Origin: a virus
Lineage: Duplodnaviria > Caudoviricetes
Length of the DNA: 29,576 nucleotides
Reading direction: 5' to 3' (one strand)
IMG/VR virus record: IMGVR_UViG_3300033475_000120
Span: 1-29,576 of that record
Shown here: positions 17,216 through 29,574 of the stretch, one piece after another
Layout: every line of letters starts with the position of its first letter
Numbering within the stretch: position 1 is the stretch's first letter
Translations under genes and position numbers: made by a program
Notes under the pieces: model-generated
Told to the model about the DNA's origin: nothing
What the model saw: only the letters and a program-made list of their open reading frames with translations
Database searches by the model: none

Positions 17216-17731
17216 TTATGCTAATGTTGCGCGTAAGTTGATTACCCACAAGTCATTAGTGATTCGTGGAACTTCAGCAAATTTATAGCCGACAGAAGCG
17301 TTAAGCGCTAATGGGCCATCATATATTGGTGGTCGATAGATAAAGCTTGCGGAATATCCATCTTGTTCAATACATGCATATGCTTCCATACCCACGCAGA
17401 AGATATTGTATACATTAGCTCCGTTGCTTGAAGCATTAGGAGTTACTGATCCAATAGAGCTGATAAGGAAACGAAGGTTACCAATAGCACCCCATTCTGA
17501 ACGCAATGCATTCATAGGAGCTGGATATTGGTTCTTTTGAATAAAACCAGCAACCGCATCCAAGTTACCCGTTAATTGGGTTGAGCATAATGCAAAGTAT
17601 GCATCACGAACTGGAGCTGTACCGAACTTATCTTCACCTTCGATGTTGTCCATGATTGTGTATGCATTGTTATTTAACAATGTACGCACAACAGCATCAA
17701 CATCTGAACGTGTGATTTCTGTTGGGTTATC
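17216..17731 (-). CDS. major capsid protein exon 3 (171 aa + stop)
   Basis: Begins GAT after terminal intron G: DNPTEITRSDVDAVVRTLL...EWGAIGNLRF...GPLALNASVGYK (N4 gp56-like MCP C-terminal motifs). Confidence 0.85.
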   Translation of the reverse strand, partial: DNPTEITRSDVDAVVRTLLNNNAYTIMDNIEGEDKFGTAPVRDAYFALCSTQLTGNLDAVAGFIQKNQYPAPMNALRSEWGAIGNLRFLISSIGSVTPNASSNGANVYNIFCVGMEAYACIEQDGYSASFIYRPPIYDGPLALNASVGYKFAEVPRITNDLWVINLRATLA

Positions 17732-18173
17732 CTTTTCTGTTACTTCAGCTTTCGCTTACTGACCTCTTCAGGCGGGGACTTTCTCTACTTATCCCTCATT
17801 GTGTTTCCACAATGTTCAGAGCACCGCATCCTTCGTGCATTTACATCCGTATCGTTGCAATTCCCACCAACCATCTTGATTTTGATGATAGGAGTGATAA
17901 CAGCGCGGAGGTTTTACAGGAAGGTCTTCTCGCTTGCTACGTTCAGGCTGTTTGAGTTTTCTGTTTTCTTCTTCAAGTTTTTTTATCTCTTCTCGATGTC
18001 TTTCTCGCGATCTTCTCTCAGAAGATTCTGCCAATTGCCTTGCGTTATTATCAAGAATCGATTTTACTATCCAAAAACCACTTACACTCATTCTTGCCCC
18101 TTGTTGCCGGTTAGCTATATGCCACTACGGTTTCCAAGTCTATCAGAGAAGATTTAAAAACGGCAATAATTCT
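17732..18173 (-). mobile_element. group I self-splicing intron 2 in MCP (442 nt)
   Basis: P1 AACGGU/GCCGUU with U.G at the splice site; P10 UUAUU/GAUAA; P3 UCUUCUC/GAGAAGA; P4 CUUG/CAAG; P9 CAUUGUG-GAAA-CACAAUG; ends in G; removal restores the frame. Confidence 0.88.
17816..18091 (-). CDS. intron-2 internal ORF (91 aa), charged/coiled-coil; not a recognisable homing endonuclease
   Basis: ATG right after AAGGGGCAAGA (SD-like); runs through the ribozyme core (QPERSKRED). Confidence 0.45.
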   Translation of the reverse strand: MSVSGFWIVKSILDNNARQLAESSERRSRERHREEIKKLEEENRKLKQPERSKREDLPVKPPRCYHSYHQNQDGWWELQRYGCKCTKDAVL

Positions 18174-18293
18174 ACCGTTCACACCGCCAACGCAGTTAAT
18201 GAAACCAGCAGTTGCTGCTAACATATCACGGGTTAGTTGGTCTTCTGTTTGACGAAGTGAAACACCCAAACGTGCCGCACATTCGTTTAATAC
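18174..18293 (-). CDS. major capsid protein exon 2 (40 aa)
   Basis: VLNECAARLGVSLRQTEDQLTRDMLAATAGFINCVGGVNG, fitting the long spine helix of an HK97-fold MCP. Confidence 0.85.
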
Positions 18294-18300
18294 CAATCTG

Positions 18301-18489
18301 TTACTTAAATGACCTAATTTCTTTTCTCATAAGCGCTTTGCAATTTTCTGGTTTACACATAAAGTGGGCTCCTGCGTTACAGTAACTTCCTCTAATATCC
18401 CAGCATTCGTACCAGGGCTTACCAAATTCTTGCTCCATCTGCTCATTAGTTATGAACTTAGGCGGGGACTTTCTCAACTTATCCCTCAT
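18301..18489 (-). CDS. intron-1 3'-domain ORF, Cys-rich (62 aa from ATG 18489)
   Basis: GGUGGA SD-like sequence in P9; MRDKLRKSPPKF...YECWDIRGSYCNAGAHFMCKPENCK. Confidence 0.35.
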   Translation of the reverse strand: MRDKLRKSPPKFITNEQMEQEFGKPWYECWDIRGSYCNAGAHFMCKPENCKALMRKEIRSFK

Positions 18490-18751
18490 GATGATTTCCA
18501 CCATGTTCAGAGCACCGCATCTCTGTACTACAATTTTTAAACGCATGTTCAAATTGTTTATCACTAATATCGATGAGTACAGAGTCTTCTCGCTTGCTAC
18601 GTTCAGGCTGATTGAAAGATTTTTTAACCGAATCTAGTTTAGAGTCAAGTTTGTAATAACAAGCTTCACAATATTCCCCAAATGCAGGATAATACATTGG
18701 ATTTTTTATTTTGCTTTGACATTTATCGCATTCGTAAAAAAATTCTTTCAT
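18479..18751 (-). CDS. intron-1 P6 ORF (90 aa), CxxC...CxxC zinc-ribbon-like
   Basis: CDKC...CEAC; ATG at the same position as the intron-2 ORF. Confidence 0.45.
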   Translation of the reverse strand: MKEFFYECDKCQSKIKNPMYYPAFGEYCEACYYKLDSKLDSVKKSFNQPERSKREDSVLIDISDKQFEHAFKNCSTEMRCSEHGGNHHEG

Positions 18752-18832
18752 TCTTGCCCCTTGTCACGATCGTCTTTACGCTACCGCTTCCAAGTCTATC
18801 AGAGAAGATTTAAAGACCCCATATTTTTGTTT

Positions 18833-19144
18833 AGGGTCTTGGTTTTGTAAGGTAACTTGCTCGTTCAATTGAACATAAGTCCCGTAAAACGAAATCTGGG
18901 CGTCAATGTCTACAGCGGTTAGATTTTGCGCTGGAGGTGTGATACCAGAGTTTCCTAGTGGAACCATTGCGGTATTGAGAGGATTATATCTACGCATACG
19001 AAGTGTATTACCACCGTTGCGAGGCATATTCTTCTTCATCGCAGGGATTTTGTGAATCATGTTAGGTACAGGCACTGAGAGCAGCTTGTAACTAAAGGAT
19101 TGCTGCACTGGCGATGGCAGAATACTTGTAGTAGTTATAGCCAT
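18833..19144 (-). CDS. major capsid protein exon 1 (104 aa), N4 gp56-like family
   Basis: AGGAG RBS; MPRNGGNTLRMRRYNPL...GITP...YG.YV motifs; downstream of scaffold. Confidence 0.88.
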
Positions 19145-28134: not shown

Positions 28135-28391
28135 TTCTTTCCTTTGCACTTTTGATCACAGTCAACACCATGTTTAGTTTCAATATTATGTTTAACTCTT
28201 TCGTTCCAGGGTATATAGCCCTCACCATGAGGATTGTGATAACAATGTATGGCATCTCCACAGCATTTCTCTAAGGTAGGCATGGGACACATTCTATCTG
28301 AATTGCGGGCAACCAGCTCAGCTTCATTGAGTGAGCTTTTGCGCTCCATAACAGGAAAACGACAACATTGTTCTAACCGTGGGTCTATCAT
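28131..28391 (-). CDS. Cys-rich hypothetical protein (86 aa)
   Basis: ATGA coupling to upstream DUF551 gene. Confidence 0.6.
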   Translation of the reverse strand: MIDPRLEQCCRFPVMERKSSLNEAELVARNSDRMCPMPTLEKCCGDAIHCYHNPHGEGYIPWNERVKHNIETKHGVDCDQKCKGKK

Positions 28392-28576
28392 GGTTTTGGT
28401 ATATCCTTAAAATGCATCCAATGAGTTATTCTATAGCCCGGCTCTTGGTTATCAAACATATAGGCAGTCCAATGTTTATATTCGGGATAATATTTAGATG
28501 TCCAACATTGAACACCATCGGTTACCAGTACATATTCTTTGTCAGGCATCCTGTCTTTTACATTTATCCAGTTCAT
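28388..28576 (-). CDS. DUF551-like protein (62 aa)
   Basis: MNWINVKDRMP...VLV...ITHWM. Confidence 0.8.
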   Translation of the reverse strand: MNWINVKDRMPDKEYVLVTDGVQCWTSKYYPEYKHWTAYMFDNQEPGYRITHWMHFKDIPKP

Positions 28577-28869
28577 TTAGTCTCCGGATTCAACGGGAAT
28601 TCCATCCAATGGGTTATTTCATATTCTTCTTCTGAACATGGAAAATCCCATCTATCGACTGCGCACCAATCCCAAGAATGATCACCTTTTGCTTGATACC
28701 AATCAACCAGTATCTTATCGGCTGGAATTCTCAACATTACACTATATTTAGGGCCAGCATAATTCAGTTTATGGGGATGCGATCCTTTTAAGCAATCTTC
28801 ACAAAAACGAGCAGTCAAATATTCTTGTCCTGCTTTAGGCATCCTGTCTTTCACGCTTATCCAATTCAA
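28573..28869 (-). CDS. DUF551-like protein (98 aa)
   Basis: MNWISVKDRMP...ITHWMEFP; TTG start with AAAGGA RBS. Confidence 0.8.
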   Translation of the reverse strand: MNWISVKDRMPKAGQEYLTARFCEDCLKGSHPHKLNYAGPKYSVMLRIPADKILVDWYQAKGDHSWDWCAVDRWDFPCSEEEYEITHWMEFPLNPETK

Positions 28870-29142
28870 GTTGTTCCTTTCGTATTCGGTATTTCAGGTA
28901 AGGGCATCCAGTGAGTCACTATATGTTCTGAAATGGGAGTTGATTTATCCCAAGGAGTAAAATAATTGGAACATATACGCCATTTTCCATCTTGATATCT
29001 GCCAAAAGCTGTACCTTCAAGCAAATAAGGCTTAACATGAATATTAATAAGAACCCAAGGAGGGACGGCATACCTATCTATTGATACATATTCAGGAAGT
29101 CTCTCTTTCACGCTTATCCAATTCAAGTTGTTCCTTTCGTAT
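28847..29142. repeat. 39-bp perfect direct repeat (28847-28885 and 29104-29142)
   Basis: TCTTTCACGCTTATCCAATTCAAGTTGTTCCTTTCGTAT occurs twice, 257 bp apart. Confidence 0.9.
28866..29126 (-). CDS. DUF551-like protein (86 aa from TTG 29126)
   Basis: MNWISVKERLP...VTHWMPLPEIP; same RBS/TTG as the neighbouring gene. Confidence 0.8.
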   Translation of the reverse strand: MNWISVKERLPEYVSIDRYAVPPWVLINIHVKPYLLEGTAFGRYQDGKWRICSNYFTPWDKSTPISEHIVTHWMPLPEIPNTKGTT

Positions 29143-29274
29143 AATGCGATATTTGGCCATGCATTCATCAGAGCACCATTGTATCTGTGATTGGCGTGTT
29201 GTTGGGTACTTTTTATAGCATACATAGCAAAGCTTTTTCGTTGGCTTATCATTTCGGGGTGACAATACTTGCAT
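29092..29274 (-). CDS. small zinc-finger-like protein (60 aa)
   Basis: GGAG RBS; CYVC...WCSDEC. Confidence 0.6.
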   Translation of the reverse strand: MQVLSPRNDKPTKKLCYVCYKKYPTTRQSQIQWCSDECMAKYRIIRKEQLELDKRERETS

Positions 29275-29363: not shown

Positions 29364-29371
29364 AGGTACCT

Positions 29372-29574
29372 TTAATATTTTTCAATGGCACTAAGATTAT
29401 CTGCTTGGGGTACTTTTCTCCCTTTAACCCCCACCAATGATAATGGGTAATATCCTTAAAGGAAAATGCTTGCGGCTCTCCATCTTCTTCTGTCATAGGC
29501 TTCATATAAAAGTCACCATGTTGCTGGTATGTCTCTGGCTTTGGGTGATCTTGAGGTATTTCCCAATGGCCAAG
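29372..29574 (-). CDS. 3' fragment of a hypothetical protein, possibly DUF551-like
   Basis: Open frame to the window edge, ...KDITHYHWWG... Confidence 0.5.

Follow-up and report, generated by a model that had tools for sequence, protein, structure and literature searches.

In the best-studied class of ribozymes, the group I introns, nothing is more conserved than the guanosine pocket, and how far this pocket can change in an intron that still splices is the question raised by a 29.6-kb virus record (IMG/VR IMGVR_UViG_3300033475_000120, positions 1 to 29,576; this whole stretch of DNA is referred to as the window). Portal, terminase and major capsid genes are present in the window, and the major capsid gene, encoded on the minus strand, was found in three pieces interrupted by two group I introns. 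Exon 1 (18833..19144) matched the major head protein family PHROG 1357 (E-value 6.5e-11) and ends in GACCCU, the last U of which is the 5′ splice-site U; exon 2 (18174..18293) contributes 40 codons; and exon 3 with the stop codon (17216..17731) again matched PHROG 1357 (E-value 5.2e-12). Among the eight window proteins scanned, the capsid gene alone matched a major-head family. Intron 1 (18294..18832; 539 nt) and intron 2 (17732..18173; 442 nt), on the same strand, each end in a terminal G, form a P1 of seven pairs and a P10 of five out of five, and restore the frame upon removal; they scored 78.4 and 93 bits, respectively, with our own covariance model (R1). Excision of both introns restored the host gene, giving 948 nt that encode 315 aa with a single terminal stop, and in this join test, which also supports exons 1 and 2, the joined protein aligned with an uninterrupted homolog in one block without gaps (306/315 identical).

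Each window intron is preceded by a U that pairs with the G of P1 (U·G). The internal guide of intron 1 (18814..18825, minus strand) was resolved into a P10 part (18825-18821) and a P1 part that begins with the wobble G at 18820; in that of intron 2 (18158..18169, minus strand) the corresponding parts are 18169-18165 and the stretch from G 18164. The P3 5′ strand, P4, P5, P4′ and the P6 5′ strand were located at 18756..18808 in intron 1 and at 18096..18152 in intron 2 (both minus strand). Elements such as P7.1/7.2 and P5abc serve as subgroup marks of the IA and IC1 types. By inspection, P2, P7.1/7.2 and P5abc are lacking and P9.1 and P9.2 are present, so the introns do not appear IA- or IC1-like. 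The P9.2 region of intron 1 (18305-18455) also holds an insertion of about 150 nt that is missing from intron 2; one of its frames is open and resembles protein, within an ORF at 18301-18564.

The departure from the consensus lies in P7 and J8/7. On the minus strand both introns carry the P7 5′ element CAGCCUGAAC-G-U-AGCA-AGCGAG and the J8/7 and P7′ element AUGCG-G-UGCUC-UGAAC. In Tetrahymena numbering, the P7 5′ strand of intron 1 (18595..18602) runs from A262 (18602) through the bulged C263 (18601), G264 (18600) and an extra U (18599) to A265, G266 (18597), C267 and A268 (18595); its J8/7 (18520..18515) closes with G306 (18515), and its P7′ (18514..18509) includes C309 (18512), C311 (18510) and U312 (18509). 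In intron 2 the P7 5′ strand, A262 to A268, occupies 17942..17935 (G264 at 17940, extra U at 17939, G266 at 17937), followed by J8/7 at 17829..17824 and P7′ at 17823..17818 (G306 at 17824, C311 at 17819). The pairs are A262-U312, G264-C311, A265-U310, G266-C309, C267-G308 and A268-U307, with C263 bulged and the extra base between the second and third of these. When compared with canonical sister introns (P7 GAAC-G-ACUA / GCG-A-UAGUC, with A306 in J8/7), the variant has the 266-309 and 267-308 pairs swapped, a base added after G264 and G at 306, exactly as the first-pass annotation had described from the letters alone. The usual P7 pattern (an uninterrupted 264-268 strand, C266-G309 and A306) is absent from the variant and is a consensus rather than a defining trait of group I introns. 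The annotation had also called P7 nearly invariant, which is overstated functionally, as sections of PMC2860135 report that P7 can change outside G264:C311; this tolerance lowers the surprise of the swap and, in those sections, does not cover the insertion.

Viral loci were searched with an exact 15-base pattern (the R motif), which gave at least 136 matches in at least 124 loci; among the matches listed, 107 of 136 had a matching S element downstream, so the variant is due neither to sequencing error, which the annotation had held unlikely, nor to chance. A second search, with U barred at the extra position, reached at least 120 loci and revealed C and A bulges together with a canonical sister family that has the same P3/P4/P6. 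After deduplication, 168 introns with complementary R and S elements were retained among the matches listed, comprising 118 bulged, 48 canonical and 2 swap-only introns, class sizes that, like the bulge frequencies, are biased by the exact search patterns. With at least 118 distinct bulged copies, the variant ribozyme subclass that had been proposed is real. Its extra base was U in 97, C in 18, A in 5 and G in none (n = 120, among the matches listed), the share of U being inflated because the first pattern demanded it; an extra base as such was therefore correctly predicted, and its identity as U was not general. Likewise, both swapped pairs are found in the window introns, but 267-308 is not constant and is also U-A in some variant introns, which leaves 266-309 alone as diagnostic. 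G264-C311 following a single bulged 263 was preserved in 42 of 42 aligned sequences.

A less biased sample was obtained from 80 loci chosen by their capsid protein and scanned with our own covariance model. These yielded 64 strong hits, among which 35 distinct introns were parsed (15 bulged and 20 canonical) and 25 unparsed rows appeared canonical by eye. The variant is a sizeable minority clade within a larger and more diverse canonical family. It is homogeneous, with P3 identical in 101 of 114 variant introns among the matches listed. The variant introns occupy at least 25 sites in a capsid gene of 945 nt (loci L001-L349). The introns of the family are mosaic, and the smallest are about 210 nt long, short enough to be transcribed easily. 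Those at capsid sites are mostly without nuclease genes. Some capsid exons are merely 20-30 nt (e.g., L045, L070, and L122), and up to five hits with our own model were counted in a single locus (L294).

Whether these introns retain a fold compatible with splicing was judged from a join test, in which the 5′ site was fixed from the U·G pair of P1 and the intron length was taken independently from the protein alignment. Of 143 introns with a 5′ core among the matches listed, 121 could be joined to capsid proteins and 71 scored at least 80. Among the matches listed, the last base was G in 58 of 61 variant introns so joined and in all 10 canonical ones; the three departures comprised a misplaced call and two slips of the register by one base. 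P10 averaged 4.1 of 5 pairs compared with 2.3 ± 0.2 when exons were shuffled among 25 sites, with none of 2,000 shuffles as high. P9.0 is of the two-pair type, positions −2 and −3 being mostly U (51/61 and 43/61, among the matches listed). P3 (7/7) and P4 (4/4) were fully paired in all 114 variants among the matches listed, with several compensatory types, and in an alignment of 42 sequences every cell of P7 was paired, with two-sided changes at 266-309, 267-308 and 268-307. The P3-P7 pseudoknot, P4, P6, P8 and P9 were thus recovered with covariation (P6 by inspection). Overall, this pattern indicates that a fold competent for splicing is under selection in an essential gene, from which we infer splicing; the variant introns are probably functional as well as real and conserved, and they likely still excise themselves with guanosine.

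The changes in and around P7 were found to be linked. All 120 introns with G266-C309 have G306 and all 48 canonical introns have A306 (among the matches listed), although the variants form one homogeneous clade, so that shared ancestry may have been counted repeatedly and ancestry alone could produce the linkage. Viral scans with exact flanks for mixed states gave no real intron among 4 matches for a bulge with canonical pairs, 7 for A306 with the variant P7′, and 11 for G306 with the canonical P7′. Of the matches for the swap without the bulge, 1 of 10 in the viral set and 3 of 76 in metagenomes were real, with 71 of the 76 being chance. These represent two introns, on which the bulge-less state rests: L362/L445, one contig present in two collections, and L447/L453, two assemblies, in a different gene. 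They differ in P3, host gene and the 267 pair, yet G306 is found in both, and L362 is a sister of the bulged intron L330, with the same P3′, P9, P9.1 and 3′ exon. An antisense LAGLIDADG-like ORF lies inside P6a of the first (L445:969-1514, by motif), as in the mycobacteriophage intron LittleE; the second (L447:~790-1011) sits early in an unrelated gene that looks structural and has a weak P1. The layers of the guanosine site described in part of PMC10020454 are A263-C262-G312, G-G264-C311, A261-A265-U310, and A306-C266-G309. In the variant every base of this fourth layer is different, which suggests a swapped triple, G306-G266-C309.

Two further elements correlated with the P7 type. P9.1 is a hairpin at 18465..18485 in intron 1 and at 17775..17795 in intron 2 (both minus strand), with a purine-rich 11-nt loop in the former and the same loop type in the latter, a type detected in variant introns only. 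Among the matches listed, the P9.1 loop YGAAG(A/C) was present in 47 of 48 canonical versus 0 of 118 variant introns, a linkage that may reflect the physical closeness of P9.1 to P7′ (about 25 nt). A third loop, CAGARAUG, also occurs with a canonical P7; it was found in the canonical sister L179, in LittleE and BAKA, in both swap-only introns and in five bulged introns, a distribution that suggests the lineage of origin and an order of swap, then bulge. In Tetrahymena, G358 of P9.1 docks in the P7 minor groove, as reported in part of bioRxiv 2021.08.11.455951. P8 exceeded 40 nt in 4 of 48 canonical versus 71 of 118 variant introns (among the matches listed).

Many of the introns carry a small passenger ORF that reads through the ribozyme core. 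That of intron 1 (18479..18751, minus strand; 90 aa) starts right after the P6 5′ strand, fills P6a and continues through the P7 5′ strand (as QPERSKRED), P8 and the P7 3′ strand; that of intron 2 (17816..18091, minus strand; 91 aa) has an unrelated P6a part and passes through P7 in the same frame. Neither matched a Pfam or PHROG family, homing endonuclease families included. Among the matches listed, P6a inserts measured 60-400 nt, and 102 of 106 variant introns and 12 of 13 canonical ones had one frame open through P7; each of the other frames was open in 1 of 106 variants, and in no more than one overall. Nearly all of these ORFs have an AUG right after P6, and P8 inserts kept the passenger frame in 49 of 68 cases against 12 and 5 for the other frames (among the matches listed). 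The 107 peptides fell into 76 unrelated clusters (among the matches listed); of 70 passengers scanned, 4 passed the cut-off of DUF551, and there was no match to any nuclease family. In both P7 classes all observed variation of the P7 5′ strand is synonymous in the passenger frame, and the sole bulged intron in which J7/3 would read as a stop (L049, a single case) has no ORF. Near-identical passengers were recovered at different sites and with both P7 types (91.5% identity between canonical site 516 and variant site 372), pointing to modules that are exchanged, probably by recombination, so that the 25 sites do not count as so many independent moves of the variant ribozyme.

We consider it likely that the variant is a widespread phage clade, marked by the extra base, G266-C309 and G306, that splices with guanosine at G264-C311, the fourth layer of its pocket having, as predicted, changed to G306-G266-C309. 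The first-pass annotation had weighed a bulged base against a shifted register in which G-C would be the first pair, the extra base would be the 263-type bulge, and A-U would lie at the cofactor site with altered specificity. Usually the 263 bulge is U, C or A and not G, a pattern that the extra base resembles, and the A264:U311 mutant of Tetrahymena switches its cofactor specificity to 2-aminopurine, which gives such a site a precedent. However, the bulge-less relatives with the swap admit the canonical register only, so G264-C311 is likely the G site; the terminal G of the joined introns would have to bind an A-U site, and J6/7 would need two more nucleotides, given that the UGA-ACG upstream does not differ from that of canonical sisters. 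The altered-cofactor register is disfavored and has a slender chance of being right; the bulged-base register, which the annotation had preferred, gains from the variable bulge, the bulge-less relatives and the terminal G. Of two other arrangements, a contiguous P7 (C-G, G·U, N-C) was rejected, as the extra base paired with C311 in 0 of 23 introns, and a long P9.0 through a CUG/CAG match was set aside, since C311 would be occupied by it. Neutral drift would leave guanosine binding as usual and treat the swap, G306, the bulge and the P9.1 change as independent events in one clade, with no compensating triple. The homogeneity of the clade and the tolerance of P7 noted above agree with it, as does a paper cited in sections of PMC2860135 whose title reports 266-268 pairing to be nonessential in vitro; yet the altered positions coincide with the three members of a single known triple, no intron with one side changed alone was found among introns matching the exact flanks, and G306 accompanies both bulge-less introns in spite of their differences. 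On balance drift is an unlikely, though not negligible, explanation.

It is also conceivable that the core is weakened and that splicing needs help, whether from a passenger peptide, from a protein of the host or from passing ribosomes. The single open frame through P7, its synonymous variation and the missing ORF of L049 are in line with such a dependence, but the same frame is kept in the canonical sisters, a short P6a with no ORF is found in 15 of the 120 bulged introns (among the matches listed), and the diversity of the peptides is unlike that of a dedicated helper; we regard this possibility as very improbable. That the introns are dead remnants or sequence errors is nearly negligible: splicing is judged here from sequence comparison, and contigs from four sequencing runs, in which the record has small shares and which are probably of DNA, gave no usable splice joint, a result that weighs neither way, but in-frame intron stops would block the capsid protein, P1, P10 and the terminal G are kept at 25 sites or more, and the same core recurs in more than 100 independent contigs. 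More speculatively, the active site may have been re-engineered, the J8/7 G mimicking the cofactor in a second G·G-C triple, the bulge opening or retuning the pocket and ribosomes that translate interchangeable passengers gating splicing of the capsid message; this is a distinctly doubtful reading, which if true would mean a cofactor affinity or identity unlike that of all characterized introns, and the chemistry of the variant is probably unchanged. For the preferred model, a clade with guanosine at G264-C311 and a swapped triple, the following order is suggested. The swap of the triple would have come first, in a lineage whose P9.1 bore the CAGARAUG loop. A one-base bulge of any base but G would then have been tolerated; we propose that G was barred because, by pairing with C311, it could shift the register. 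Subsequently the loop of P9.1, an element that in other introns supports P7 on its minor-groove side, would have drifted to new types. The 3′ core module probably spread over many capsid sites, at least in part by recombination between intron copies with near-identical P3/P4/P6 sequence, and ribosomes reading P6a passengers through the same bases would impose a second constraint on P7.

The annotation had warned that standard models may miss the subclass. Indeed, Rfam detected neither window intron at an E-value ≤ 1, and the 50-bit threshold of RF00028 (Intron_gpI) was not reached. That the altered P7 is the cause was not supported, as 20 loci, mostly with canonical sisters, yielded a single hit, below threshold (26.9 bits against a cut-off of 50), four further loci with canonical sisters gave no Rfam hit, and the experimentally spliced introns of BAKA and LittleE scored 28.6-30.7 bits, also below the cut-off; the blind spot is therefore family-wide. 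Weakness of group I intron models in general is discussed in parts of PMC6125680 and PMC11878797. The canonical sisters (L020, L045, L128, and L140), from the same uncultured phages, share with the variant a P1 directly before P3, the P3/P4/P6 sequence, the 3′ GUAACA end, the passenger-ORF frame and capsid sites 312, 516, 543, and 552; they differ in GACUA/UAGUC, A306, the absence of the bulge, the YGAAG(A/C) loop and a short P8. The LittleE capsid intron and the BAKA/Optimus tail introns, for which splicing in vivo in mycobacteriophages is described in part of Pope et al. 2013 (PMC3706429), are the nearest experimentally tested relatives. Like the variant they reside in phage structural genes and have a 5′ U, a 3′ G, the CAGAAAUG P9.1 loop and the GUAACA end, and the antisense LAGLIDADG gene of LittleE is shared with L445; unlike the variant they have a canonical P7 (GACUA/UAGUC), A at 306 and a P2. 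BAKA scored 20.8 bits with our own model.

Comparison with characterized ribozymes gave a similar picture of shared and altered features. In the Tetrahymena site, as set out in part of PMC10020454, G264-C311, A265-U310, the 263 bulge, A261 and a two-pair P9.0 are as in the variant, whereas P7 has six pairs, a single bulge and A306-C266-G309 in place of a second bulge after G264 and G306/G266-C309. The lariat-capping ribozyme GIR1, natural and group I-like, resembles the variant in the replacement of the final J8/7 position beneath the G stack; according to part of PMC2219692, its topology and reaction have changed with a P7 pocket identical to that of Azoarcus, whereas the variant has ordinary topology and splice signals and an altered P7 itself. 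Endonuclease ORFs that overlap the core of bacterial and phage introns, as described in part of PMC3984707, likewise start in a loop and enter the core; the ORFs of the variant are unlike those cases in being small, diverse, non-nuclease and swapped among sites. No description of the P7 variant was found in the literature searched in full text, with most subscription papers and the GISSD and Rfam alignments outside that scope, nor in the sections consulted of PMC5640933, PMC2219692, PMC3984707, PMC13692252, and PMC11835236 (the paper on a database of 42,459 introns). The insertion beside G264 would surprise a specialist. In this natural clade a base is inserted next to the G-binding pair and the neighboring triple is wholly changed. 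Canonical, swap-only and bulged introns in the same phages form an evolutionary series for pocket plasticity and triple covariation, within a large family of phage introns that interrupts capsid genes, is overlooked by Rfam and exchanges small passenger genes inside its ribozyme loops.

The distribution of the family outside the viral loci was also surveyed. Among 50,697 records of cultured phages there was no real match to intron 2, and the capsid protein found its relatives in 6, at 25-30% identity at most. Genome contigs gave 25 matches, of which 2 were dropped as identical to the window introns and 9 of the 23 considered were genuine variant introns, located in bins whose labels were mixed, with Chlamydiota or Babeliales accounting for four. 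The one long contig (G001:C2; L465-L467) passes from about 73% GC to a phage of 40% GC at its end and is probably a chimeric assembly, and when 150 genomes of the phylum of G002 were scanned with our own model, the family was found in 1, the starting genome G002. A few loci were unusual: variant introns in L007 and L051 have portal-like rather than capsid-like flanks by eye, and the intron cores in L003 (~979, reversed locus) and L025 are truncated, nested or in tandem, which fits either recombination among copies or errors of assembly. Elsewhere in the window, a preQ1-II riboswitch match at 29371-29472 (30.2 bits, cut-off 47; E-value 0.19) is probably due to chance. A free-standing DUF551 gene (28866-29252, E-value 2.1e-7), located among short repeated blocks (28391-29142), resembles some of the intron passengers and is a possible type of passenger donor.
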